This document shows positions 3,338 to 26,847 of a stretch of 32,000 nucleotides of DNA, in pieces; the first letter of the stretch is position 1, and every line of letters starts with the position of its first letter. This DNA comes from Massilicoli timonensis (GTDB lineage: Bacteria; Bacillota_I; Bacilli_A; Erysipelotrichales; Erysipelotrichaceae). Both the position numbers and the translations under genes were made by a program. Under the pieces are notes generated by a model that saw nothing but the letters and a program-made list of their open reading frames with translations, did not search any database and was not told the origin of the DNA. The stretch lies in contig NZ_LT963434.1 of the NCBI RefSeq assembly GCF_900199515.1, positions 54,057 to 86,056 on the forward strand, written 5' to 3'.

Positions 3338-4202
3338 ACGCTGCATGGTTGCGCTGATTACCCCGTTTCATGCGGATGGCTCGATCGATTACATGAGCAT
3401 GGCAAGACTGATCAGACGTTTACTAAAAGAAGGATGCGATGGCTTCATCGTATGCGGCACTACGGCTGAAACACCGACGCTGCGCAAGGAAGAACGCAGG
3501 CAGATCCTGCGCTTTGTCATCTCCCAGGTAAAGGGGAAAGCAGCAATCTATTATGGCTGCGGCAGCAATGACACATTAGCGACGATTGCGGCATGCAAGG
3601 AAGTCGAAAAGGAAGCGATCGACGGCGTGTTATTAGTAACCCCTTATTATAATAAACCATCGCAGGAAGGCCTATATCGTCATTTCAGTGCGATCGCACA
3701 GGCAACTACACTGCCGATCATGCTTTATCAGGTACCGGCACGCTGCGGCGTCGCAATGGAAGCGGAAACGATCATTCGTCTGGCGCACGATCATGAAACT
3801 ATCAAGGCGCTTAAGTTTGCCAGCAGTGATTTCGCTTTGATCAGGAAAGTCAAAGAAAACTGTGATCTTACGATTTACAGCGGAGAGGATGAAATGCTGC
3901 TGGAAGGGTTAGAGGAAGGCATGCAGGGCATCATCTCAGTCAGTGCCCATCTGATCCTGCCACAGATCAAAAAGCTGATGGAACAGTATGAGCAAAGCTG
4001 TATCGATCCGCTTCTGCATTTACAGATCAAGGCTTATGCACGGCATTTGTTTATGGAAAGCAGTCCGGCGCCGTTAAAATACCTGTTATCCAAGCGGGAA
4101 GAATGTGAGAATGTGCTGCGGCTGCCCTTAGTCGGCGTATCGGCGCAAACCCAAAAAACATTAGATGCTTTCTTTGCTTCGACAACATTCTTTTTTGACT
4201 AA
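3330..4202 (+). CDS. dapA: 4-hydroxy-tetrahydrodipicolinate synthase
   Basis: DapA signatures are present: ALITPF, CGTTAE, TPYYNKPSQEGLYRHF, LYQVPARCG and a catalytic-Lys context ALKFASSD. ATG 3330 lies 8 nt after AGGAAG; GTG 3321 is an alternative start. Confidence 0.9.
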   Translation: MTKRCMVALITPFHADGSIDYMSMARLIRRLLKEGCDGFIVCGTTAETPTLRKEERRQILRFVISQVKGKAAIYYGCGSNDTLATIAACKEVEKEAIDGVLLVTPYYNKPSQEGLYRHFSAIAQATTLPIMLYQVPARCGVAMEAETIIRLAHDHETIKALKFASSDFALIRKVKENCDLTIYSGEDEMLLEGLEEGMQGIISVSAHLILPQIKKLMEQYEQSCIDPLLHLQIKAYARHLFMESSPAPLKYLLSKREECENVLRLPLVGVSAQTQKTLDAFFASTTFFFD

Positions 4203-5287: not shown

Positions 5288-5710
5288 ATGTTGCAGCTTA
5301 ATATCACAACAGACTACGCAATCCGAATTGTTGTTTATTTGGGAATGACAGGCGGTTTTGCGGCTTCAAGGGATATATCCGGCAGCATGGGTATTCCTTA
5401 CGGTTATGTGCTGAAAATCGTCCGTAAATTAGCAGCGGCGGGGATTGTAACGACCAGCACGGGGATTTACGGGGGTATATCTTTGAATAAGAAGCCGGGC
5501 GATATTTCCCTGCTGGACATTATTCAAACCATGGAAAGCACGGCCAAAATTAACCGCTATTTGGAGAAGGACAAATATTGCAGCCGCTTTGCAACGGAAA
5601 CCTGCCCGGTAAGGCAGTTCTACTGTGTTTTGCAGGACGAGCTGGAAAGCAAACTTTCTTCTATTACGGTTGCTGCTTTATTGCAACAGAAAAAAGGAGA
5701 TGTATCATGA
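5288..5710 (+). CDS. Rrf2-family transcriptional regulator
   Basis: The N-terminal winged helix reads TDYAIRIVVYLG...SRDIS...GIPYGYVLKIVRKLAAAGIV. A C-terminal C-x8-C-x6-C cluster could ligate Fe-S. ATG 5288 follows AAAGGAGGG. Confidence 0.85.
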   Translation: MLQLNITTDYAIRIVVYLGMTGGFAASRDISGSMGIPYGYVLKIVRKLAAAGIVTTSTGIYGGISLNKKPGDISLLDIIQTMESTAKINRYLEKDKYCSRFATETCPVRQFYCVLQDELESKLSSITVAALLQQKKGDVS

Positions 5711-8468
5711 CAATGAAAAAAGACAAGAAACTGTTAAGCCTGTTGCTCTGCTGTGTGATGTGCCTGACGGTTATCCCCGTGTCGGTATTTGCACAGGCGA
5801 TACAGCCCAAAGGCATTACCTCATTCACCGGGCAGGATTTGGTGAACGAGGGACTGATCGAGGACATCAACTTTGCCAACGCGATTGCAGAATCCATTAT
5901 GGCAGATACGGATAATTTTTACGGGGACTACTACGGCGATACCAGTAAAACCATTGAAAGCTACGATACGTTGGAAGATGTATTGCAAAACTTCACCGGC
6001 GTTATTGACGCAAGGGATAGAGGAATTACATCGCTGGTAGGGTTCCCCAACCTGCGCCATGCGCTGGAAGTGCATGTGGAGAACAACGAGATTAACGACC
6101 TCACACCTATCGCAGTGGAAGAACAAAATTATTATGGCGATGTAAGAAAAAGATTTGAGTACAGAAATACAGAGGTATATATCGCCGGGAATCCGGCAAC
6201 GAAGTTTCCTGAAAATTTCGGAGGCGCTTTGGATTTTCCCGATTTTTCCGATGCAGGGTTTATTTCCGAAGTATACACCTTTATCTCAACCGGGGAGACC
6301 CCCCGATTTTAACGCAAATATTGATGCGAGCATCCAAATTGGCGACGGTTATGCCACAATAAATGAAGCACCCCTTAGTTTATATTTTGAAGACGGTCAA
6401 TTTGTGACGACAAATTTTGACCTTTATGAAAACCTGTCGAAAACCAATGCTGAGATTGATCGTACCCAAATCAATACAGACCATTTATATATTTTGAATC
6501 ATATCAAATCGACCGGTTTCGGTTTTGGAGGGTTTTCGCAAGTTAATGCGAGCACTGGCGGCGTACTACAAGTCAACTGGCAAAAAGCAATAATAAGCAA
6601 TGTAACGCCTAATAGCAAATCAAGGGAATGGCTGCTCCCCATTGCCACCCAAATCATAAGCAAGGTGGAAAAAGGGACGCTGCAATCGGATTTTAGCATT
6701 GATTTCACCAAGACCAGCGCGAAAACGAATCAAGTCCTGCCGGGCGCGACATACGGCCTGTACCGGGACGGAACAGACGAGCTGATCGGCAGCTATACCA
6801 CCGACGACGACGGAGCCTTTTCCATTCCCAACGACAAGCTGCAAGGCGAAAAATTTTACCTGAAAGAGATTACCGCGCCGGTGGGACACCAGCTAAATCC
6901 TGAAAAAATCCCACTGACGTTGAAAAACGGCTCGATTGCACTCGCTTCTAAAACAGGCAGCAAGGTGACGGAAAATACTGGAAGCACCACGCAAGAACAT
7001 GATTTAGGCGACAACGGCGTGTTTGCCATTGGCGGGGGTATGCTCACTATGCCCGACCCGAATAACCCCGGACAAAGTATAACCGTAGACCCGGCTGGGC
7101 TGGATTTACAAATTATCCTGCCGGAAGTCAACGGGCAAAAGGGTACATTAAAATCCTTGACCGTCACCCGTACCAAAGGCAACAATACCACGATTACGGA
7201 ACAGGGGATGGAGGAAACTTTCACAGGTTCCGTAGAAGAAGTAGAAGAAGCGGCGTTGGAATTTATCAACAAGGCGGTCAAAGGCGGTCACGGAATACGC
7301 TCATGTGGAGGTTTCCGCTGAATTTGAAATGGACGCCACGGCAACACAGAGCGACAAGGTTTCCAGTTCTTTTGAGATTACAAAGGAAACAGTTGGCGGT
7401 GCAAAGGAAGATAAGGACAAGGAATTTTCTTTCACGGTAACGCTTGAAAAAGACGGGCAGCCCTATACCGGCGACTATACCATTGACGGCGAAGCCGGAA
7501 CGGATAAGGACGGTAGCTTTGAGGTATCGCTGAAAGGCGGCGAAAGCGTTATCATCGGCAGTCTGGACGAGGGCACCGAGTACACAGTGACCGAAAACAA
7601 AATCGAGGGCTGGCAGGCCGAACAGGAAAGCATTTCCGGCGTTACCCAAGCGGACAAGGTAACGGAGGGAAAAGCGGAACCGGCGACCAGCGCGGACTTT
7701 GTGAATATCAAAATCCCAGAGCTGTCCTACACAATGGACAAAAACCGTCTCACTCTGGCGAAGTTAAAGCCCGGAACAACAGACCAGTATGGTTTAGAAA
7801 AAGGCGATACGGTAGAGTATGCCATAACCATTAAGAACACCGGCGACTGTGAGCTTACGATGGACGTAACGGATAAATTCACTGACGCGGACAAATTTAC
7901 TGATTTGAAAGTAACCAAAGTAGAGGGTGCAACAAGGAACAGCGACCTTACCGATAAGGTAGGCGTAAACATCACCGTCAAAGTCGGAGAAACTGCGACG
8001 ATTACCTTTAGTGCTGTAGTAGCAACGGACATTGAAATCTTGTCCAATGCTGCCACAGACGATGGCAAAGGGTATGAAAACATTGCCGAAGCGTCCAACG
8101 TCAAGGGGATCTATAAACAAGGGAATGACAAAACCATTGTCTATTCCCCCGATCCAAAGGACGGCGAAACACAGTACCCGGACAACCCGGACGGCACAAA
8201 TCCGTTAGATCCGCAGGAGGATAGGGCAACCACACCAGTTTACAAAGCGGACGAGGAACAACCACCGGTAGATCCGGAAGAACCGACCGACCCGGAACCC
8301 AGCGACCCTGAAAATCCGAGTGAGTCGGGCAATTCGGACGTACCCCAAACTGGTGATAAAAGCAATCCAGCTTTGTACTTTGCTCTCATGGGTGCAGGAA
8401 TGATTGGCCTTATCGCAAGCCTTTTCCTCAATAGGAAACAGAAAAAGTACGCAAAACACAGACGGTAA
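5707..8468 (+). pseudogene. large cell-wall-anchored adhesin split into three ORFs by two frame disruptions
   Basis: The three ORFs are 5707-6312, 6155-7321 and 7305-8468. Domain order runs: signal peptide (MTMKKDKKLLSLLLCCVMCLTVIPVSVFAQA), internalin-like LRR N-region, SpaA/SdrD-B-like domain (LPGATYGLYRDG...FYLKEITAPVGHQL), pilin-isopeptide-like domain (EFSFTVTLEKDGQPYTGDY...YTVTENKIEGW), DUF11-like repeat (GDTVEYAITIKNTGDCEL), Pro-rich stalk, then VPQTGD + TM + basic tail. Frames are rejoined by a -1 nt change at the G4/C6 run (6292-6304) and by removing one copy of the 10-bp duplication at 7271-7290. Confidence 0.75.
7271..7290 (+). repeat. exact 10-bp tandem duplication (AAGGCGGTCA x2) causing a +1 frameshift in the adhesin
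   Basis: Read directly. Deleting one copy gives ...INKAVTEYAHVEVSAEFEMDAT..., which joins ORF 6155-7321 to ORF 7305-8468. Confidence 0.95.
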
Positions 8469-15831: not shown

Positions 15832-15845
15832 ATCTCCTTTTTTTC
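15816..15845 (+). terminator. intrinsic terminator after pdp
   Basis: GGAGATC (15816-15822) pairs with GATCTCC (15831-15837), followed by T7. Confidence 0.75.
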
Positions 15846-16006
15846 AGCATTTCACTAGGAACGTATGAAAAGATGGAATAAATTGACAAAATAAGACAAA
15901 TCATATATCACTATGTAGAATAAAGAGGGTTTTGCTGGAAGGATCCCAGCAGGAAAAAAAGTATTACAGAATGCTGGATCTGTAAGAATTAGAAGGAGAT
16001 GGATTT

Positions 16007-17154: not shown

Positions 17155-18327
17155 ATGAAACGCATACAAAAACAAATTGGTTTTTTCATGGCCTTTGTGC
17201 TGTTTTTCGAGTTATGGCTCTTTCCGGCCTCGCCAAAAGCCCAAGCGCAGACGACCCTCGCTTCCAGTGCACAGTCAGCTTATTTGATGGAATATGAAAG
17301 CGGTGCTGTCCTATTTGAAAAAAATGCGGATGAAAAGTTATATCCGGCTTCCATGACGAAGATGATGGGCCTGCTTTTGATCTATGAGGCATTAAATGAG
17401 GGCAGCTTAAAGTGGGATGATACGGTCAGTGCCAGCGCGCATGCGGCTTCGATGGGAGGCAGTCAGATCTTCTTAGAAGAAAATGAAACGATGACTGTGG
17501 AAGATCTGGTAAAAGCGATCTGTATCGGATCGGCCAATGATGCCATGGTAGCGATGGCAGAAAAGATCGGCGGCAGTCATGAACACTTTGTGGAAATGAT
17601 GAATGAGAAAGCACAGACGCTTGGTTTGACCAATACCCATTTTGTCAATGCGACCGGCCTTCATGATAAAGACCACTACTCCAGCGCCAAAGACATGGCG
17701 ATCATCGCACAGGCACTCATTGCGAAGGGAGGAGATGATCTGTTGAAGATCACCGGTACTTATGACGCATATATTCGCGAGGACGGCGATGATAAATTCT
17801 GGCTCGTCAATACCAACAAACTGTTAAAGCAATATCCCGGGGTAGACGGCTTGAAGACCGGTTTCACCCAAGAGGCGATGAGCTGCATCACCGCTACCGC
17901 TAAAAAAGAGCGTGTACGGCTGATCGCGGTCGTCATGAAAGAACCAAATTCCAAGCAGCGCAATCTGGAAGCAAAGCAGCTGCTGGATTATGGCTTTTCG
18001 CAGATGACCCAAGGTATTTTGATGAAGAAAGATACGGTTGCCGAAACGATTACTTTAGAGAACGGTAAACCGCAGATCGTGAAGTTGAAATTAAAGGAAG
18101 ATGCGATCGCCGTTTATCCGAAAGGGGAACAGCCGGCAGTCGTAAAAAAGGAAATCACTTTGACCAAGGAACTGCCCTATCAGAAAAAAGAAACCGTTGC
18201 CACATTGACCTTGACACTTGACAATCAAACAAAAGTCAAAGTACCTCTTTACAGTGATCGCAATGTTGAAAAACGCACCTTCTTTGATTTATGCAAGCAT
18301 ACGCTGCTGGCATTATTTTTTGCCTAG
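17155..18327 (+). CDS. dacF: D-alanyl-D-alanine carboxypeptidase (sporulation-type PBP5 homolog)
   Basis: A signal peptide is present, with SMTK (SxxK), SAND (SxN) and KTGFT (KTG) motifs. Its position directly upstream of spoIIAA-spoIIAB-sigF matches B. subtilis dacF. Confidence 0.85.
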   Translation: MKRIQKQIGFFMAFVLFFELWLFPASPKAQAQTTLASSAQSAYLMEYESGAVLFEKNADEKLYPASMTKMMGLLLIYEALNEGSLKWDDTVSASAHAASMGGSQIFLEENETMTVEDLVKAICIGSANDAMVAMAEKIGGSHEHFVEMMNEKAQTLGLTNTHFVNATGLHDKDHYSSAKDMAIIAQALIAKGGDDLLKITGTYDAYIREDGDDKFWLVNTNKLLKQYPGVDGLKTGFTQEAMSCITATAKKERVRLIAVVMKEPNSKQRNLEAKQLLDYGFSQMTQGILMKKDTVAETITLENGKPQIVKLKLKEDAIAVYPKGEQPAVVKKEITLTKELPYQKKETVATLTLTLDNQTKVKVPLYSDRNVEKRTFFDLCKHTLLALFFA

Positions 18328-18360
18328 CGCATGCTTTTTTTGTTGATGGATAAGAGGTTT

Positions 18361-18404
18361 TGTCGAGGATTCCCAAAAGGAAAATAAAACGTGCTAAGAT
18401 AGCG
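18361..18404 (+). promoter_or_regulatory. candidate Spo0A box plus sigmaH-like promoter of the spoIIA operon
   Basis: TGTCGAG at 18361-18367 matches the 0A box TGTCGAA at 6/7 positions. AAAGGAAAAT sits around 18376-18385 as a -35-like element, and AAGATAG around 18397-18403 is a weak -10 (GAAT expected). Confidence 0.3.
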
Positions 18405-18419
18405 GACAGGAGGGATCAT

Positions 18420-18737
18420 GTGGACTATCAATTACAGGATCAGACCCTCATTTTTCACTTTGAGGGAGACTTTGACAATGTGGCGGTTGGCAAAGTAAAA
18501 GAAACGTGCGCGGCGCTGATCGAAACGCATCGCCCTAAGCTCGTCAAGCTGGACTTTCAAAAGGTCGATTTTGTGGACAGCACCGGTATCGGTTTCGTTT
18601 TGGCGCGCTACAAGCAAATAAAAAAATATGACGGAGAACTCGTATTATGTAATTTATCAAGCAGCCAGAAAAGGCTGTTTCATATGTCGGGCATCTTTCG
18701 CATCATCAGATTAGAACAAAGCGAGGTGTTGATATGA
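18420..18737 (+). CDS. spoIIAA: anti-sigma-F factor antagonist (STAS domain)
   Basis: DFQKVDFVDSTGIGFVLARYKQIKKYDGELVLCNLSSSQKRLFHMSGIFRIIRLEQSE closely parallels B. subtilis SpoIIAA, including the phosphorylatable Ser in DST/DSSG. GTG 18420 lies 7 nt after AGGAGG; the track start at 18360 adds an implausible basic extension. Confidence 0.9.
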   Translation: MDYQLQDQTLIFHFEGDFDNVAVGKVKETCAALIETHRPKLVKLDFQKVDFVDSTGIGFVLARYKQIKKYDGELVLCNLSSSQKRLFHMSGIFRIIRLEQSEVLI

Positions 18738-19171
18738 ACCGGATGAAGCTGTCTTTTTGCTCTCATTTGGAAAATGAAGCGTTTGCCCGTACGAGCGTGA
18801 TTGCCTTTCTGATGCCGCTTTCGATGAGCGTAGAAGAAGTGATGGAGATCAAAACGATCATGGCAGAAGCAATCGTCAATGCGATGATCCACGGCTACGA
18901 GGGAAGAGAGGACGGAGAAGTCATCGTCAGCGTTTCCTACGATGAACAAAAGATCGTTACGATCATTGTCGAGGATCAGGGATGCGGTATCCCTGACATT
19001 GATCTGGCAATGCAGCCGCTTTATACTTCAAAAGCCCATTTGGAGCGCAGCGGGATGGGAATGAGCATCATGAGCGCGTTTGCCGATGAATTCTATGTGA
19101 ATTCTAAGGTGGACTGCGGTACGACGGTAACGATCATCAAACAGATCCATGGCATCGAAGATCAGCAATGA
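18734..19171 (+). CDS. spoIIAB: anti-sigma-F factor / serine protein kinase
   Basis: The HATPase N-box is EAIVNAMIHGY, the G-boxes are DQGCGI and GMGMSIM. The gene overlaps spoIIAA by ATGA-type coupling. Confidence 0.92.
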   Translation: MNRMKLSFCSHLENEAFARTSVIAFLMPLSMSVEEVMEIKTIMAEAIVNAMIHGYEGREDGEVIVSVSYDEQKIVTIIVEDQGCGIPDIDLAMQPLYTSKAHLERSGMGMSIMSAFADEFYVNSKVDCGTTVTIIKQIHGIEDQQ

Positions 19172-19871
19172 CGAGCTGCTTGCACGCATCAAAACGGGTG
19201 ATGAAAGCGCCTTGGTACAGTTTGTGGAACAAAATAAGCCGTTGGTCGTTTCCATTGTCAAACGCTTTTCCCGCAGCGGTATTGATGAGGATCTGCTTTC
19301 GATCGGCATGGTCGGTCTGATGAAAGCGATCCATCATTTTAATGCGGACTATCAGGTACGTTTTTCTACATATGCGGTGCCGATCATCATGGGCGAGATC
19401 AAACGCTTTTTTCGCGATGACGGCAATATGCGCATTTCACGCAGCTTAAAAGAAGGCTATGTGGCAATGACAAAGGTCAAGGAAGAGCTGATTCAGCAGC
19501 ATGGAAGGGCAGTCAGCTATCAGGAGATTGCCGATGCGATGCATTTAGAGGTAGGAGATGTGATCTTAGCGTTTGAAGCGAATCAGTTTGTGTATTCATT
19601 GGATGAACCGGTCTATGAAAAAGACGGCAGCACGATTCATCTTTCTGATCGTGTGAGCAGTGCAGAACGCGATGTCGCACTGCATGTCGCTTTATGTGAT
19701 GAAATCAAACGGTTAAGTGAAAAAGAACAGCAGCTGCTGTATTATCGCTATACATTGTCGATGAAGCAGGAAGATACGGCAAAACGCTTACAGATCTCGC
19801 AGGTGCAAGTATCAAGACTGGAAAAGAAGATCATCGAAAAGCTGCGCATGGCATTATTAGAGCAGGCATAA
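19149..19871 (+). CDS. sigF: RNA polymerase sporulation sigma factor F
   Basis: Sigma70 region 2 reads LVVSIVKRFSRSGIDEDLLSIGMVGLMKAIHHFNADYQVRFSTYAVPIIMGEIKRFFRD. Region 4 contains the HTH QEDTAKRLQISQVQVSRLEKK. It is third in the spoIIA operon. Confidence 0.92.
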   Translation: MASKISNDELLARIKTGDESALVQFVEQNKPLVVSIVKRFSRSGIDEDLLSIGMVGLMKAIHHFNADYQVRFSTYAVPIIMGEIKRFFRDDGNMRISRSLKEGYVAMTKVKEELIQQHGRAVSYQEIADAMHLEVGDVILAFEANQFVYSLDEPVYEKDGSTIHLSDRVSSAERDVALHVALCDEIKRLSEKEQQLLYYRYTLSMKQEDTAKRLQISQVQVSRLEKKIIEKLRMALLEQA

Positions 19872-19982: not shown

Positions 19983-20015
19983 TTGACAAAAACGCTGGGG
20001 GGGGGGGGGTACAAT
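19983..20015 (+). promoter_or_regulatory. sigmaA-type promoter whose spacer contains a G13 tract
   Basis: TTGACA at 19983-19988 and TACAAT at 20010-20015 are separated by 21 nt, 13 of which are G. Confidence 0.5.
19997..20009 (+). repeat. homopolymeric G13 tract
   Basis: Counted directly (4 G + 9 G across the 20000 boundary). Confidence 0.98.
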
Positions 20016-20089: not shown

Positions 20090-21808
20090 ATGAAACGAAA
20101 AAATGTAGTATTTACTACACTGACGTCGTTTGCACTTGCGGCTGCTATGTTTTCCAGCACAGTACCGGTTCATGCAGACGGCGCATTGAGCCAAACTGCT
20201 TTTATGGAACAACTGAAACAAAGCAATTATCAGTTTGATGAAGCAGTGGTGGTGGAAGTAACCAGTATGCTGGAGCTTAATCAAAAAGCCAGCATCAGCA
20301 ATGTTACCTTTGTTGATAAGGGGATCCAAAATGCACATGTCGTGTGGATCAACGGCGAGGTAACCTTGAACAATGTAACCATTCAGGCAGAGGAAACAAG
20401 CAAAAGTGGGTTATATGTCGGAGCAGGTGCAGATCTGAGCGTAAATGATCTGACGATCTCACATAACAGTGCAAAAGGCGCGCCGATCATTGCCAATCGA
20501 AATGCCAAAGCGGACTTTAACGGCAAACTGGATCTGACACTTAGTGAAGGATCATGGTATGGAATCAATGTGGATAGCGGGGCAAAAGTTGATTTAAGCG
20601 ATGCAGATCTTGTTGTCAAGACACATGACAATAACAAAACACAGTCAGCTCTCTGTATTGATGACAGCGATGCGAATACGGTGGTCATGCCGAAAGACAG
20701 CACCCTTTCCACAGTAGCGACGGAAGATGGTCAGCTGGCATATGTGAATGCGGATGATCTCGGCGATTTCATCATGGCAAAAAAAGACAAAGATGTAACC
20801 GAAGTGGTATTAAATTCTGATATTACTTTGACATCGCCGCTGTATTTGCAGGAAGGCATGACGATCAAAGGAAATGGTCATGCATTCAAAGGCAGCGAAG
20901 CCCTTGGCAAGGAAAATGTGGTTACAGCCATGGCAAAAGATGAAGTAGTTGTTTTAGATGATGTGCAAATCGTAACAACAGAATTTAACAAGAGCGGTCT
21001 GCATGTTTACGGCGGAAACGTAACGGCAAATGATCTTGTGATCGACAATACGAAAACAGCAGGCGGCGCCGCAGTGGTATTAAACGGCGGTACGCTGGAA
21101 ACAAGCAACGCGACCTTCCTGTTAGGAGACAATTCATGGGGCGCAGTCAATGTGGATAACCGCAGCGGTGTAGAGCCGAAGTTAACGATTGCCGATTCAG
21201 TGAAAGTAGAAGCACCGGAAGGAAAATCAACCAGTCTGTTCTATGTAGATGAAGATAAGGCTGATGCGATCGATCTGAATGATACGGTGGATATCAAAGC
21301 TGATACGACGATGACGGTAAACGGCGATACATTCACGCTGGGTGAAGACGGTGAGATCATTCCTCATATCATGATTACGATTGCCGCTGTCGTAGATGGC
21401 AAAGTAGTAGACCTGAGTGATGTCGTGGATCCAAGCGAGCTGTCCGTAGAAGCGTTAAAAGGCTATGTATTCAGCGAAGCGGATCTGGAAGAACTGTCAG
21501 CGATCGCGAAAGATCTTGATTTTGAAGGCCATGTATTCCAAGGATTCTTCTTAGATCAGGAAGGAACCAAAGCATTAAAGGCAAATGAAGCGATCAATGA
21601 AGATACGACCATTTACATGATTTGGAACAAAAAAGCGACGATTACACCGGTCGATCCGACAACACCGCAGGATAAGCCACAGACACCGAATACAACACCG
21701 TCTGCACCGAATACCGGTGATACGACGACTGCAGGTGCCTATGCGTTATTGGCACTGTTGAGCTTAGGATTAGCAGGCACGATCGCTTTGAAGAAAAAAC
21801 TGAACTGA
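20090..21808 (+). CDS. secreted parallel-beta-helix-like surface protein with Flg_new-type repeat and C-terminal sorting signal
   Basis: The start is moved to ATG 20090 (MKRKNVVFTTLTSFALAAAMFSSTVPVHADG) after GAGGAGG. Periodic V.LNNVTI / LSVNDLTI / VTANDLVI segments are present. FEGHVFQGFFLDQEGTKALKANEAINEDTTIYMIW resembles the Listeria-Bacteroides repeat. The C-terminus is a Pro/Thr stalk followed by APNTGD + TM + KKKLN. Confidence 0.8.
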   Translation: MKRKNVVFTTLTSFALAAAMFSSTVPVHADGALSQTAFMEQLKQSNYQFDEAVVVEVTSMLELNQKASISNVTFVDKGIQNAHVVWINGEVTLNNVTIQAEETSKSGLYVGAGADLSVNDLTISHNSAKGAPIIANRNAKADFNGKLDLTLSEGSWYGINVDSGAKVDLSDADLVVKTHDNNKTQSALCIDDSDANTVVMPKDSTLSTVATEDGQLAYVNADDLGDFIMAKKDKDVTEVVLNSDITLTSPLYLQEGMTIKGNGHAFKGSEALGKENVVTAMAKDEVVVLDDVQIVTTEFNKSGLHVYGGNVTANDLVIDNTKTAGGAAVVLNGGTLETSNATFLLGDNSWGAVNVDNRSGVEPKLTIADSVKVEAPEGKSTSLFYVDEDKADAIDLNDTVDIKADTTMTVNGDTFTLGEDGEIIPHIMITIAAVVDGKVVDLSDVVDPSELSVEALKGYVFSEADLEELSAIAKDLDFEGHVFQGFFLDQEGTKALKANEAINEDTTIYMIWNKKATITPVDPTTPQDKPQTPNTTPSAPNTGDTTTAGAYALLALLSLGLAGTIALKKKLN

Positions 21809-21931: not shown

Positions 21932-22996
21932 ATGGACGCAAGATCACGCATGGTACAGTTTTGGCGCTGGTTTCAGGGAATAGAAGGCGCTTTCTATACT
22001 GCTTTACAAAAGCAGCAAAGCGAAGAAAGAAATCGCTATGAAGAAATGATCAATCAAAAGATGGAGCAGTTATGCGGCTGTAAAGCGGTATATGAGGTCG
22101 ATGATCACTACATGGAAATGACCTGTGAGAGCGGTGCCCGTAAGAATATCCAGTATTTATGCGGCTTATGGGAAACCTGTGCACCGCAGGAACTGCGTTC
22201 TCGCTGGATCTTCAACGCATTTCGCAAGCCGCTTGGAGAAATGGCGCAGCATGCGTATTTTGAACTAAAGGGAAAACGCTATGGCGGTCACGATATCAAG
22301 GTGTATTATACGATCGACGATGCCGCGAAGCTTTTGCATCTGCAGCTTTACTGTGAAGGCTTTTGTTATGTAGAGAAAAAAGCGGCGAAGGAAATGGCCA
22401 TGTATTTGTTGGAGCTTTATATCGGTGAGCTGGAACTGGAAGCACGCATCGGTGATGTTTCGATCTTGGATGCACCGACCGATGCACAAGATGTGGTGCT
22501 ATTGCCAAATCTCTATGAGGATATTTGTGATATCGTAATCGATCGCAACTGGCTGGAATACCGCGATCCAACCCAGATCTATTTTGCTTATCAGTTGGAT
22601 CAGCCTGTGCAAAATGAAAGTCTGCGCAAAGATATGGTGGCGATCGTAACCAGTCATCCGCTGCTGTTTGAGGAACTGGTAAATCAGACTTACGACCAGC
22701 TGCATGAATTTAGCACTTTTGGGGCAGAATATGGGTATCTGTATTATGAACCGCTTGCGGAAAAGGGAAAGGAAAGCATGATCCGAGCCCAGTATGAAAA
22801 ACAAATTCACGAGCTGTTATCCCCTTTGGGAATCGCCAGAACGATCGGCGGCGCGATCGGCACCAAATATGCGTATATCGACATGGCGATATTTGATAAA
22901 AAAGCCTTTTATCAGGCACTGGAGAAAATCAATGAAAAAGTCGATGTGATGTTCACCTATCGAGCGTTTATGGGTGAAGAGGAAGGAAAGGAGTAA
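21932..22996 (+). CDS. hypothetical cytoplasmic protein (354 aa), no family recognised
   Basis: A long ORF with coding-like composition, a GAGAGGAAG Shine-Dalgarno and its own promoter. It has no signal peptide and no motif I can name. Confidence 0.6.
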   Translation: MDARSRMVQFWRWFQGIEGAFYTALQKQQSEERNRYEEMINQKMEQLCGCKAVYEVDDHYMEMTCESGARKNIQYLCGLWETCAPQELRSRWIFNAFRKPLGEMAQHAYFELKGKRYGGHDIKVYYTIDDAAKLLHLQLYCEGFCYVEKKAAKEMAMYLLELYIGELELEARIGDVSILDAPTDAQDVVLLPNLYEDICDIVIDRNWLEYRDPTQIYFAYQLDQPVQNESLRKDMVAIVTSHPLLFEELVNQTYDQLHEFSTFGAEYGYLYYEPLAEKGKESMIRAQYEKQIHELLSPLGIARTIGGAIGTKYAYIDMAIFDKKAFYQALEKINEKVDVMFTYRAFMGEEEGKE

Positions 22997-23000
22997 TCAG

Positions 23001-23423
23001 ATGAAAAAACTATTGGCAGTTGTAAGCGTATTGCTGTGCATGGGCTGCACCAGCAGCAAGGATATCGTAACCGGAACAGCTCAGAGCGAACCGGATGAGG
23101 AGGGGAACTATACGGTCGTTACCGTGGAATATTCCAAAAGCAAGGATAAAGTAGTAGATGTAAACATTGATGAGTACAAGAACGGCGTTTCTAAAAAATC
23201 AATGGGCGATGATTATGGCTTAAAAGCGGTATCGGGAGTCGGCCGTGAATGGGATGAACAGATCCATTACTTGGAAACCTTTATCAAGGATTACAGCATT
23301 GCCGATCTGCAAATGAATGAATACGGCGTGTTGGAGAATCCTGATGTCATAAGCGGATGCAGCATCTATGTGGGACATATGATCCCGCTCGTAGAAGCAG
23401 CCATCGCCGATGCAAAGGGATAG
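23001..23423 (+). CDS. lipoprotein with FMN-binding-domain-like architecture
   Basis: MKKLLAVVSVLLCMGCTSS carries a lipobox. The layout Y.VVTVEY...DKVVDVNIDE......(D)VISGCSIYV......EAAIADA resembles FMN_bind domains, which read D.vSGAT.T; here the equivalent is SGCS. ATG 23001 lies 7 nt after AAAGGAG. Confidence 0.6.
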   Translation: MKKLLAVVSVLLCMGCTSSKDIVTGTAQSEPDEEGNYTVVTVEYSKSKDKVVDVNIDEYKNGVSKKSMGDDYGLKAVSGVGREWDEQIHYLETFIKDYSIADLQMNEYGVLENPDVISGCSIYVGHMIPLVEAAIADAKG

Positions 23424-23572: not shown

Positions 23573-23601
23573 TAGATAAATATGAGAAAATATGATATAG
23601 T
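23573..23601 (+). promoter_or_regulatory. promoter candidate for the LRR surface-protein gene
   Basis: TAGATA at 23573-23578, a 17-nt spacer, then TATAGT at 23596-23601 with TG at 23593-23594. Confidence 0.4.
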
Positions 23602-23655
23602 GTAAGCAAGCAAAGATAGCGTCTGTAAAAAAAACAGACGAAAGGAGGAAAATAG

Positions 23656-25439
23656 ATGAAAAAGAAAGTATCGTTGCTTTTGGCAAGTCTATGCCTGATG
23701 TTGGGCATGGCAGTAAAACCGAACATGATTTTTGCCCAGGGGGGGGGGGTACTGTAAATCAGTACTCTGAAACTGAGGCAGGTGGCCTAACGCTAAGTGA
23801 TTGGGATTATACAGAAACAAGTGATAAGATCACATTAACGAAGTACAAAGGGAATGCCGTAAATGTTGTCATTCCATCAGAGTTTGAAGAAAGACCAGGT
23901 GTATCAGTAGAGGTTGCAACTTTTGATGGAATGTTTGATAATCTTAAAAAAGAGAATTCATCAGGAAATCCAAAATACTATAATGAATTAGTATCCTTGA
24001 AAGTAGGAACAACGGATCAGAAAGTAACACTGGGGATAGATTCGATTAACAGTGTATTTTATGAAGCAAATTACTGGTTTACTGAGTTAGAAACAGTAGA
24101 TTTGAGTGGACTAGATACGAGTAATGTTACTAATATGTGTGGGATGTTTTTAGGATGTGAAAACCTAAAAAACATCAAGGGATTAGAGACATTAGATACA
24201 AGCAAGGTAACAAATATGAGTGGGATGTTTTTCAGGTGCAAATCTTTAGAACATATAGATGTTAGTAATTTTGATACAAAAAATGTAACAACTATGAGTA
24301 ACATGTTTCAAGACTGTACCAGTTTAGAAAGTTTGGATCTTAGTAATTTCAATACTTATAAACTTGAATATATGTTTATAATGTTTGGTGGCTGCACAAA
24401 TTTGAAAAGCATTAAATTTTCAGATACATTTGATACTAGTAATATTGTTGATATGGGATCTGTGTTTCAAGGGTGTAATCATTTAGAAAGACTAGATCTT
24501 AGTAATTTTGATACAAGCAAAGTAACAACAATGAATTGGATGTTTTTCGGTTGCAGTAGTTTAGAGACGTTGGATTTAAGCAACTTCAATACAGAAAAAG
24601 TTGCAGATATGAGTTATATGTTTGCTGGTTGTACCAATCTGAATCATGTAAAAGGATTAGAAACTCTTGATACAAGTTCTTGCAAAAGGTTTTCGGGCAT
24701 GTTTCAGAATTGTGGGAAATTCAATATTATTGATTTAAGTAATTGGAATTCTAATGAAAACTGTTATATCAATGGTATGTTTTATTACAATGAATCAGAA
24801 ATTGAACTTATACCGTTAGATGACCCGATTCCATTAATGATCATAACAGAAGATAAAAGAATTATTGATAATATTGATCCAGAGGATAAGTGGATGACTT
24901 ATTATAATAGAACCCCATACTATGCAAAAGTTGTATATCATGGAAATGACGGTACTTTTAATAATGGGAATACAGAAAGTGAAGCGATCGTATATCAAGC
25001 AGATCATTTCATCTACTCCACAATGGCAGAAGCAAAACAAGATTTTACCTTAACCGGTACAACCATATTAACCAATAACCCATCTGCTAGCCTAAGCAAA
25101 GAGGGATTCATATTCAATGGCTGGTATTTAGATGAAGCGTGTACGATGCCATTAGCGGAAACCGATCTGATCGATTTTATGACATTAGAAAATGGTACGT
25201 TACAGTTATATGCAGGATATAAAGAAGAAACACCGAAAGAGCCGGAAATCCCAGAGAAAAAACCGACAAAACCGGAAGAGAATAAGGGAGAAAGCAGTAT
25301 AGAGGAGATCAAGAAAGAGGAGAATGAAACAGTACATACAGGAGATGAAGTAAGCAAGGGAATGTACTATGTACTGCTAGGGGGAAGTGTGATCGTATTC
25401 GCTGCAATGTTACGCAAGAACAGAAGCAGCGAACAGTAG
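23656..25439 (+). CDS. DUF285/BspA-like leucine-rich-repeat surface protein, frameshifted (phase-OFF) at a G11 tract
   Basis: AAAGGAGG is followed by ATG 23656, which encodes the signal peptide MKKKVSLLLASLCLMLGMAVKPNMIFAQ and then GGG. That frame stops at 23755-23757. The 582-aa body (track ORF 23691-25439) lies in the frame reached by adding 1 G. The body has about 9 repeats of the LD(L)SNFDTS.VT.M..MF.GC..L type, then a Flg_new-like GFIFNGWYLDEACT...LQLYAGY segment, then TVHTGD + TM + RKNRSSEQ. Confidence 0.8.
23739..23749 (+). repeat. homopolymeric G11 tract inside the 5' coding region
   Basis: Counted directly (2 G + 9 G). Confidence 0.98.
24081..24792 (+). repeat. coding tandem array of about 25-aa DUF285-type LRR units
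   Basis: The periodicity is visible in translation: ...LDTSNVTNMCGMFLGCENLKNI / LDTSKVTNMSGMFFRCKSLEHI / FDTKNVTTMSNMFQDCTSLESL ... Confidence 0.7.
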
Positions 25440-25454
25440 TAAAACAATGCAAAT

Positions 25455-25490
25455 GAGCAGGTAGGAAAGGCTACCTGCTCTTATCAATTT
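25455..25490 (+). terminator. probable terminator
   Basis: GAGCAGGTAG (25455-25464) pairs with CTACCTGCTC (25471-25480). The tail TTATCAATTT is only moderately U-rich. Confidence 0.6.
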
Positions 25491-25521
25491 ATGATAAAAT
25501 ACTGGAAAGAGGGTGATGAAG

Positions 25522-26847
25522 ATGCAGACACTGTTTACCAACGAATTACAAGATCCTTTAGCAAGCAGGATGCGTCCGCAAACATTAGAAGAATATATCG
25601 GGCAGCATCATTTGATGGATGAAGGGAAACTGCTTCGTCAGATGATCTGTGCCGATCAGGTGCCGTCCATGATCTTTTGGGGGCCGCCGGGCGTTGGGAA
25701 AACAACGCTTGCGCAGCTGATCGCAACGCTGACACATGCCCGTTTTATAGAGTTCAGTGCGGTTACCAGTGGCATGAAGGAAATCAAAGAAGTGATGAAA
25801 GATGCGACACAGGCTTATGCTTATGGCGAAAAGACGATCTTGTTCGTTGATGAAATTCATCGCTTCAACAAAGCCCAGCAGGATGCGTTTTTGCCTTTTG
25901 TGGAAAAGGGAACGATTACTTTGATCGGGGCAACGACGGAAAATCCTTCTTTTGAGATCAATTCTGCGCTGTTAAGCCGCTGTAAGGTATTTGTCTTAAA
26001 GGCATTAAGCAATGAAGATCTGGTGCAGGTATTAAAGCATGCGCTGCAGGCGGAGCGCGGTTTTGGAAAGCTGCATGTGCGCTGTGATGAACGCTATTTG
26101 CGCATGATCGCGGATTTTGCGGGAGGAGATGCGCGCATGGCGCTGAATACACTGGAAATGGTGGTGCTGAATGCGAAGCGCAAAGATGATGCGATCTTCA
26201 TTGAGGAAGAAGACCTGAAGCAGTGTATCAGTGTAAAATCGATGCTCTATGACAAAAAAGGGGAAGAACACTACAATTTAATCTCCGCCTTACATAAAAG
26301 TATGCGCAACAGTGATACACAGGCGGCGCTGTATTGGCTTGCGAGAATGCTGGAAGCGGGGGAAGATCCGCTTTATGTGGCAAGAAGACTGGTGCGTTTT
26401 GCCAGTGAGGATATCGGTATGGCAGACAGCCGTGCTTTAGAAATCTGTGTGGCGGTTTTTGATGCCTGCCATGATTTGGGGATGCCGGAGTGCAGCGTAC
26501 ATCTGGCGCATGCTGTCACCTATCTCTCGCTTGCACCGAAATCCAACGCATTATATGTGGCATATGAAAAAGCCGCCGCAGATGCGCGCAAGACAAGTGA
26601 AGAAGGCGTGCCGTTACAGATTCGCAATGCGCCGACGCGGTTGATGAAAGAGCTGGATTATGGAAAAGACTATGATTATGCGCACGATCATGAAGAAAAG
26701 ATCACCGGCATGTACTGTCTGCCGCCGGCACTGGAAGGGACGATTTATTACACCCCGACCACGCAGGGAAGCGAGGCTAAGGTAGGTATGCGGATGAAGC
26801 AGTTAGAGGAACTGCGCAGACAGCTGCGAAAGAAGAAGCCGCAGTGA
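25522..26847 (+). CDS. rarA: replication-associated recombination protein A (AAA+ ATPase)
   Basis: RMRPQTLEEYIGQ, Walker A GPPGVGKTTLA, Walker B ILFVDEIHRFNK and the C-terminal MgsA pattern LYWLARMLEAGEDPLYVARRL. The start is ambiguous among 25513, 25516 and 25522. Confidence 0.9.
   Translation: MQTLFTNELQDPLASRMRPQTLEEYIGQHHLMDEGKLLRQMICADQVPSMIFWGPPGVGKTTLAQLIATLTHARFIEFSAVTSGMKEIKEVMKDATQAYAYGEKTILFVDEIHRFNKAQQDAFLPFVEKGTITLIGATTENPSFEINSALLSRCKVFVLKALSNEDLVQVLKHALQAERGFGKLHVRCDERYLRMIADFAGGDARMALNTLEMVVLNAKRKDDAIFIEEEDLKQCISVKSMLYDKKGEEHYNLISALHKSMRNSDTQAALYWLARMLEAGEDPLYVARRLVRFASEDIGMADSRALEICVAVFDACHDLGMPECSVHLAHAVTYLSLAPKSNALYVAYEKAAADARKTSEEGVPLQIRNAPTRLMKELDYGKDYDYAHDHEEKITGMYCLPPALEGTIYYTPTTQGSEAKVGMRMKQLEELRRQLRKKKPQ

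Follow-up and report, generated by a model that had tools for sequence, protein, structure and literature searches.

A poly-G tract behind the signal peptide of a BspA-like surface-protein family in Massilicoli timonensis, a probable site of slipped-strand phase variation

Massilicoli timonensis, a member of the Erysipelotrichaceae, was isolated from human stool (PMC6796691). We analysed a 32,000-nucleotide (nt) stretch of the type strain genome, called the window hereafter (NCBI RefSeq assembly GCF_900199515.1, contig NZ_LT963434.1, positions 54,057 to 86,056 of the forward strand). An earlier note, made from the letters alone, had pointed to a run of eleven G residues in this window, placed at the 5' end of a gene for a leucine-rich repeat (LRR) surface protein, and had proposed that the gene is switched by changes in the length of the run. 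Here we describe the gene and its tract, compare the locus with public assemblies and place the gene within its family. From its geometry and its variation between samples, the G11 run is very likely a slipped-strand phase-variation tract of a multigene surface-protein family.

The BspA-like gene and its G11 tract

The annotated gene is an open reading frame (ORF) of 582 amino acids (aa) at 23691-25439, identical to WP_102266466.1, a "BspA family leucine-rich repeat surface protein" of M. timonensis. Another start lies ahead of it on the same (plus) strand, where a Shine-Dalgarno (SD) sequence (AAAGGAGG, 23641-23648) stands 7 nt before ATG 23656. This start codon opens a putative signal-peptide region, MKKKVSLLLASLCLMLGMAVKPNMIFA|Q (23656-23738), and the first base of its Q codon immediately precedes a homopolymer of exactly 11 G (23739-23749, plus strand, codons 28-32). 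Judged by eye, the leader MKKKVSLLLASLCLMLGMAVKPNMIFAQ has three lysines, a 16-residue hydrophobic core and I-F-A before the Q. With 11 G the gene is OFF: the frame reads GGGVL and meets a TAA stop at 23755-23757 (plus strand), which closes a leader ORF of 33 aa; a peptide identical to this one has been recorded from other contigs (P0131).

The mature body is an intact ORF of 562 codons on the plus strand (23748-25439), matched by family models, in the frame that is reached by adding one G or removing two. When the tract was rebuilt in silico from G7 to G15, leader and body were fused at G9, G12 and G15, giving proteins of 593, 594 and 595 aa (...IFAQGGG(G)TVNQYSE...), and G7, G8, G10, G11, G13 and G14 each led to a stop after 32-38 aa. 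Natural ON forms join the same leader in frame to the body, with G9 (P0022, P0142, P0169, P0175, P0237, P0255) or with G12 (P0149, P0213, P0217, P0230). The earlier note had described the SD sequence, the start codon, the signal peptide, the tract, the premature stop and a body frame displaced by +1 G (G12) or -2 G (G9), all of which we recovered. Two sites in the window carry runs of at least 11 G (four matches when overlaps are counted), against none in 100 dinucleotide-preserving shuffles. The remaining G runs do not exceed 7 and the C runs do not exceed 6. The only other G run longer than 6, a G7 in tyrS (742-748, codons NQGGL), is in frame in a housekeeping gene and was rejected as a switch.

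The RefSeq start of WP_102266466.1 is an internal ATG (23691-23693, plus strand) that lies inside the leader in another frame. It has no SD sequence, and its product has no signal peptide, as had been noted for the ATG in frame with the body. The start call reflects the OFF state and is a by-product of annotation. We rejected expression from ATG 23691 and from a TTG before the tract, since an SD sequence is missing and the product of either start would have no signal peptide yet keep the C-terminal anchor tail. Public annotation of the family likewise tracks the OFF state, its starts being placed at the internal ATG, a long way downstream, or at the TTG that immediately precedes the tract ("MPRGGGTVNQ..."), and many entries are named "partial" or "hypothetical protein" (P0121, P0139, P0140 and P0170 among those affected). 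The current annotation of this BspA-like poly-G family is wrong by construction, and metagenome assemblies also break at the tracts.

The body is a DUF285/PARCEL ("BspA-like") LRR protein, in agreement with the identity first assigned to it. Matches above the model cutoffs were obtained with Pfam DUF285 (178.9 bits, cutoff 25, E = 3.5e-53), Pfam LRR_5 of the BspA type (42.1 bits, cutoff 27.7, E = 9.5e-11) and the NCBIfam PARCEL repeat TIGR02167 (204.3 bits, cutoff 30, 7 stretches, E = 7.4e-62). An N-terminal part beginning TVNQYSE... is followed by the DUF285/PARCEL LRR repeats, a Flg_new-like region and a Pro/Glu-rich stalk. The C-terminal tail (25332-25436, plus strand) consists of VHTGDEVSKG, the hydrophobic stretch MYYVLLGGSVIVFAAML and RKNRSSEQ, and is conserved across alleles. 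It has the shape of the C-terminal sorting signal claimed earlier (VHTGD, hydrophobic stretch, RKNR), but the LPXTG model TIGR01167 gave no match to the BspA-like protein at E <= 0.01.

Upstream of the SD sequence lies a candidate sigma-A promoter (TAGATA, 17 nt, TG-n-TATAGT; 23573-23601, plus strand). Such sites are no more frequent in the window than in shuffles, so that this one stands as a consensus match only, which may act as a promoter. Among 19 aligned cassettes, the homology between different chromosomal loci (L012, L014, L015) begins at this candidate promoter, at ...AAAAGTAGATAAATATG, and takes in the promoter, a hairpin in the 5' untranslated region (5'-UTR), the SD sequence, the leader, the tract and then about 60 codons of the mature N-terminus. 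The hairpin, CGTCTGT-A7-ACAGACG (23620-23640, plus strand), was found in both the minimum-energy and the centroid fold and has 7 base pairs, with an A8 run at 23627-23634 in its loop. It stands directly before the SD sequence in every cassette, with a loop of A7, A8, A9 or AAAAGGAAA across samples. In L016 (4829-4849) it reads CGTTTGT...ACAAACG, both arms being changed and the pairing kept. It is perhaps an mRNA-stabilising stem. At the other end of the gene, a candidate terminator for the plus strand, a GC-rich hairpin after the stop codon (25455-25480), was scored on the minus strand and is weak, its plus-strand tail being T-poor.

Tract length in public assemblies and allele clusters

Comparison of orthologous loci had been proposed beforehand as one test of a length-dependent switch. 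Exact matches to the proteins on either side led us to the locus in public assemblies, where the tract length was taken from the consensus; the set comprises 14 unselected samples and one further sample (G9) that was chosen for being ON. Length polymorphism was abundant, with G10 in ten of the 15 samples, G8 in two and G9, G11 and G13 in one each. None of the 14 unselected samples was in frame, and these assemblies do not show a uniform G12 with an intact gene. The flanks were almost unchanged: L021 (G10), L022 (G13), L023 (G10) and L025 (G8) have 0-1 substitutions in 680-nt flanks, and the window (G11) has 0 flank substitutions against L002 and L008 (both G10). A pattern scan of Joint Genome Institute (JGI) metagenomes added G10, G10, G8 and G7. 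Leader peptides of the window's own allele, back-calculated to tract lengths, gave G10 (103 contigs), G7 (33) and G11 (5). All evidence together, DNA sequences showed G7, G8, G9, G10, G11 and G13, to which the N-termini of proteins added G12 by inference. Two intergenic runs before the bactofilin genes, T7 (15838-15844) and A7 (15954-15960), also differ between samples (T7 vs T6, A7 vs A5) and are far less variable than the G tracts.

These lengths bear directly on the possibility of a homopolymer miscall, by which the type strain would truly have G12 (or G9) and an ordinary intact gene. The type-strain sequence was put together from MiSeq Nextera reads by means of several assemblers and of GapCloser (PMC6796691), and long G runs are error-prone. 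Contigs of other assemblies often break at the tract as well: five of the eight returned contigs (L003-L007) end within about 100 nt of the coding tract (locus coordinates 5689-5832), and L005 ends exactly at ...GCCCA, as would be expected if the reads there were mixed or poor. A miscall is nevertheless improbable. The 14 unselected assemblies give G8, G10 or G13, none of them in frame, and more than 100 contigs have the window's allele as G10, G7 or G11, whereas no in-frame protein of it is recorded. A systematic error would not yield lengths from 7 to 13, and no other gene of the window is broken at a homopolymer. An error of one G in the type-strain consensus would leave the natural polymorphism of the tract untouched.

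An ON and an OFF form of one allele were found at the same locus. In another strain (L017) the same chromosomal slot holds P0003, which is 48% identical to the window's protein. The cluster of P0003 contains a 675-aa member with a full signal peptide (P0255), whose contig is L026. The tract is G9 in L026 (in frame, 675 aa) and G8 in L017 (out of frame), and the two contigs are identical in the 300 nt before it and in the 1,900 nt after it. This cross-sample comparison of sequences speaks in favour of a switch.

Ten allele clusters were then typed by N-terminus and counted, contig-weighted, among their listed members. The approximate numbers of contigs were 1 for G7, 15 for G8, 16 for G9, 182 for G10, 82 for G11 and 5 for G12. 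By frame class this amounts to about 183 contigs with n mod 3 = 1, about 97 with n mod 3 = 2 and about 21 in frame (G9 or G12), the last being about 7% of the contigs of the listed members. ON and OFF forms were both present in six of the ten clusters. All named members come from M. timonensis except one protein of a metagenome-assembled genome (Candidatus Onthosoma merdavium, cluster 3). A homologue search with the first 79 residues of the ON protein returned four short fragments, all OFF or chimeric.

Eleven of the 14 unselected samples of the locus have a length with n mod 3 = 1 (G7, G10, G13), G10 being the commonest length overall. We considered n mod 3 = 1 as a selected functional frame and rejected it, as the other OFF class is also common in the allele clusters (about 97 vs about 183 contigs). 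Another alternative is recoding, instead of or besides DNA switching, in which slippage would yield some full-length protein from OFF alleles. Out-of-frame lengths make up about 93% of contigs, far beyond chance, and G10, the mode at the locus (10/15 samples), is accompanied by its +/-3 relatives G7 and G13. The run offers 10-13 identical bases and consecutive GGG codons, which is necessary, not sufficient, and tRNA-Gly can re-pair perfectly at every position of it. Runs of at least nine identical bases are known RNA polymerase slippage sites, as in dnaX of Thermus and mxiE of Shigella. We nevertheless consider recoding unlikely. Since both OFF classes are common (G10 about 182 contigs, G11 and G8 together about 97), the frame relation differs among homologues, whereas a programmed frameshift would need a conserved one. 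Past the tract no conserved stimulatory structure was found among the 19 cassettes, the TACTG/CAGTA repeat there being broken in L017. Recoding is, moreover, compatible with DNA-level switching, which is directly seen between samples. It is equally doubtful that the G10 OFF consensus is not silence and that the run doubles as an RNA-polymerase or a +1/-1 ribosome slippage site. If this were true, every paralogue would be exported at a low constitutive level, with G9 and G12 as rare high-expression states, and a single homopolymer in a gut commensal would act as a two-tier (RNA and DNA) expression dial.

The gene family, a second poly-G tract and the genomic setting

The 5' cassette is common to at least 11 diverged alleles or paralogues, and 17 of the best 120 homologues begin with a frameshifted reading of the leader or with the leader itself. 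One sequenced strain (MCQ512... accessions) has members of five clusters, and the type strain has at least three family members on one contig; the family is therefore multicopy. A scan of genome contigs with ATGATTTTKGCCCAGGGGGG gave only three unrelated chance matches, with no Massilicoli genome among them.

A fixed pseudogene, in which the frameshift is permanent and the gene is decaying, would also be out of frame. About 93% of contigs are, and the window's own allele has no ON form on record. A decayed copy does exist elsewhere: L013 (VOFI01002152.1, minus strand, about 3647-3760) carries a 5'-truncated cassette that has lost promoter, SD sequence and start codon, with G8 and a stop 42 codons past the tract. 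L013 is a genuinely decayed family member, unlike the intact copies. The full-length bodies are all intact ORFs of 457-834 codons. Between diverged copies, the Nei-Gojobori ratio of non-synonymous to synonymous divergence (dN/dS) is 0.24-0.62, with a synonymous divergence (dS) of 0.2-1.6. These ratios are well below the neutral value for dead genes, and on this sequence evidence the bodies are selectively constrained. Start codon, SD sequence, leader and promoter are conserved in all copies aligned, the hairpin is also conserved across loci, in-frame forms occur in six clusters and at the same locus, and the tract length is always the sole lesion. Further inactivating mutations in orthologues, which the earlier note had named as the mark of a dead gene, are absent from every full-length body. 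A fixed pseudogene is thus very improbable, even more so than a miscall.

The locus appears to be hypervariable and antigen-like. Its slot is bordered by a small lipoprotein-like gene (23001-23423) and by rarA/mgsA (25513-26847); a GTG at 22974 was rejected as the start of the former, whose called start is ATG 23001. Depending on the strain, this slot holds LRR bodies of 582, 663 or about 540 aa with 48-56% aa identity (window 23790-25310 vs L017 6090-7900). Compared with L017, the window has flanking genes of 97-100% identity; over most of the body, identity per 100 nt drops to about 50-70%, and lower still at insertions in one allele, before it returns to 91-99% in the last 100-200 nt. A divergent middle between conserved ends is the pattern expected of recombinational allele replacement, and the sequences point to such replacement through the conserved 5' and 3' gene ends. 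The window and L018/L020 form the closest allele pair with a sufficient number of changes; over the first 373 codons past the tract, 18.5 of these are non-synonymous and 3.5 synonymous, a dN/dS of about 1.25 as against 0.24-0.62 for the diverged pairs. This excess hints at diversifying selection or a small recombination patch, the numbers being too small to decide.

A second poly-G tract, G13 (19997-20009), lies between an exact TTGACA (19983-88), followed by AAAACGCT, and TACAAT (20010-15), about 75 nt upstream of ATG 20090. The gene that begins there (20090-21808) encodes a 572-aa protein that has a signal peptide, weakly matches a pectate-lyase-like adhesin and carries an LPXTG anchor (...PNTGD..., hydrophobic, KKK) that scored 18.2 bits, just above the cutoff of 15.9. 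In 17 samples the tract was G10 (3), G11 (6), G12 (5) or G13 (3), with 0-1 substitutions in 600-nt flanks. These lengths set a spacer of 18-21 nt, never the optimal 17. From its position, the second tract looks like a promoter-strength phase switch on a neighbouring surface-protein gene, and a second variable tract lends support to the idea that poly-G tracts serve this genome as contingency loci. Promoter-spacer repeat switches are known from the poly-A of Mycoplasma hyorhinis vlp, the poly-G/C of Neisseria meningitidis porA and opc and the TA repeats of Haemophilus influenzae hifA/B. In these, a repeat between -35 and -10 sets the spacer and hence the strength of the promoter, as may also be the case at 19997-20009.

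Upstream of the BspA-like gene the window also contains a dacF-spoIIAA-spoIIAB-sigF operon (17155-19871). SpoIIAB scored above its NCBIfam sporulation equivalog cutoff, and SigF (228 bits, cutoff 321) and SpoIIAA (91.5, cutoff 114.75) scored below theirs. The species is described as non-spore-forming (PMC6796691) despite this sporulation operon. The phrase "spore-forming Bacillota", under which the locus had been discussed earlier, accordingly does not agree with the description of the species, although the window carries this operon.

A probable surface-protein switch and its known counterparts

In the mechanism that we propose, replication slippage would add G residues to the run or remove them. 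Only lengths divisible by three (G9, G12) would link the signal peptide to the 562-codon body and so allow export and display, and other lengths would end translation after 32-38 residues. The window would represent an OFF state, one G below G12 and two above G9. The tract of each family member would vary independently and, with independent tracts that are mostly OFF, any one population would display few members of the family, much as with the Opa proteins of Neisseria or the variable lipoproteins of mycoplasmas. We infer, rather than show, that slippage causes the length changes, that a clone can switch back and forth, that the protein is exported and displayed, and that some agent (host antibody, phage or niche) selects among the states. 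Slipped-strand translational phase variation, as first proposed from the window, gains support from the length polymorphism, the intact bodies and the ON/OFF pair. Together these give several features of a contingency locus, namely a homopolymer in the 5' coding region, a length on which the frame depends, polymorphism between samples and ON and OFF forms of the same allele.

Several observations weigh against this interpretation. The recorded lengths of the window's own allele (G7, G10, G11) are all OFF, and exact look-ups of six in-silico ON proteins gave no match to an in-frame form of it. The lengths come from short-read consensus assemblies in which long G runs are error-prone, so that a miscall of +/-1 is possible at any locus of low coverage, including the L026/L017 pair (about 27x and 16x). 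The contig counts of the clusters cover only the listed members (15 per cluster) and are not phylogenetically independent. Finally, in-frame forms, at about 7%, are far rarer than the one-third expected if the frames were equally likely, and a switch then needs an extra assumption, either selection against ON or another route of expression. The rarity of in-frame forms and the dominance of G10 may possibly reflect selection against ON in the gut, assemblies that report only the majority of mixed populations, or some expression of OFF alleles by RNA polymerase or ribosome slippage.

A 2025 review asked whether the restriction of multi-locus repeat-driven phase variation to pathogens is real or a database bias (PMC11868660). 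Such variation is known almost only from pathogens, and the case described here would place it in a common human gut commensal of the Erysipelotrichaceae. A genome of M. timonensis has five or more paralogous surface-protein genes, each with its own poly-G tract, plus the promoter-tract gene nearby, and natural length variation is already visible in hundreds of public metagenome contigs. It would thus provide a testable system for how a commensal of the Bacillota varies its surface under antibody or phage pressure. In the full-text literature we found nothing on poly-G phase variation for the Erysipelotrichaceae, and nothing on M. timonensis beyond its description.

The Opa proteins of Neisseria are encoded by a multigene family with CTCTT repeats in the leader-peptide coding region, whose members switch independently and are mostly OFF. 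The likeness to M. timonensis lies in a repeat in the signal-peptide region and in hypervariable exposed parts between conserved ends. The Opa repeat, in contrast, is a pentamer, and the proteins are sequence-unrelated outer-membrane beta-barrels of a Gram-negative pathogen. In Campylobacter jejuni and Helicobacter, tracts of G8-G11 in the 5' coding regions of surface-structure genes, with a mode of G9-G10, turn the genes ON or OFF by frame. Their poly-G length spectra are similar to those of M. timonensis, whereas the hosts are Epsilonproteobacteria without mismatch repair, and the genes are mostly those for glycosyltransferases and flagellar modification rather than one cassette-sharing, adhesin-like paralogous family.

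The closest precedents are in the Mollicutes, the sister clade of Erysipelotrichia. The novelty for Bacillota is accordingly weaker than had been claimed at first, as the same geometry is described in Mollicutes, including DUF285/BspA-like families (PMC2824730, PMC5476646). Mycoplasma agalactiae has 12-13 scattered, hypervariable DUF285 ("drp") genes, two of which were detected as protein; the copies sit in the regions most variable between strains, and one is broken by a change in homopolymer length (PMC2824730). In the same species, G runs of up to 13 occur at the 5' ends of surface-lipoprotein genes, and G9 restores full P68 (PMC2824730). The drp frameshift is in a poly-A run and the poly-G runs belong to other families (spma, P48-like), where they are mostly in 5'-UTRs, and Nouvel et al. 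(2010; PMC2824730) regarded it as "unlikely" that drp itself is phase-variable. The drp proteins of M. agalactiae and M. bovis belong to the same DUF285/PARCEL family as those of M. timonensis. However, those of M. agalactiae are lipoproteins of a wall-less pathogen and M. timonensis is a walled gut commensal in which, unlike in M. agalactiae, the G run of each family member is part of the coding sequence and directly follows a type-I signal peptide.

Similarly, Candidatus Mycoplasma girerdii has at least 28 BspA-like genes, eight of which are switched by dinucleotide repeats (e.g. CA10), and the frameshifting variants were counted in metagenomic reads, the dominant form often being OFF and the minor form ON (Costello et al. 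2017; PMC5476646). Both organisms have large BspA-like families with frameshifts through repeat length, in which OFF is commonest. In Ca. M. girerdii the repeats are dinucleotides whose position is not tied to the signal peptide and whose frequencies are known within a population, whereas in M. timonensis a homopolymer stands at the signal peptide and its lengths are known here between samples. Across these differences, the M. timonensis family would link the antigenic-variation toolkit of the mycoplasmas to their walled relatives.

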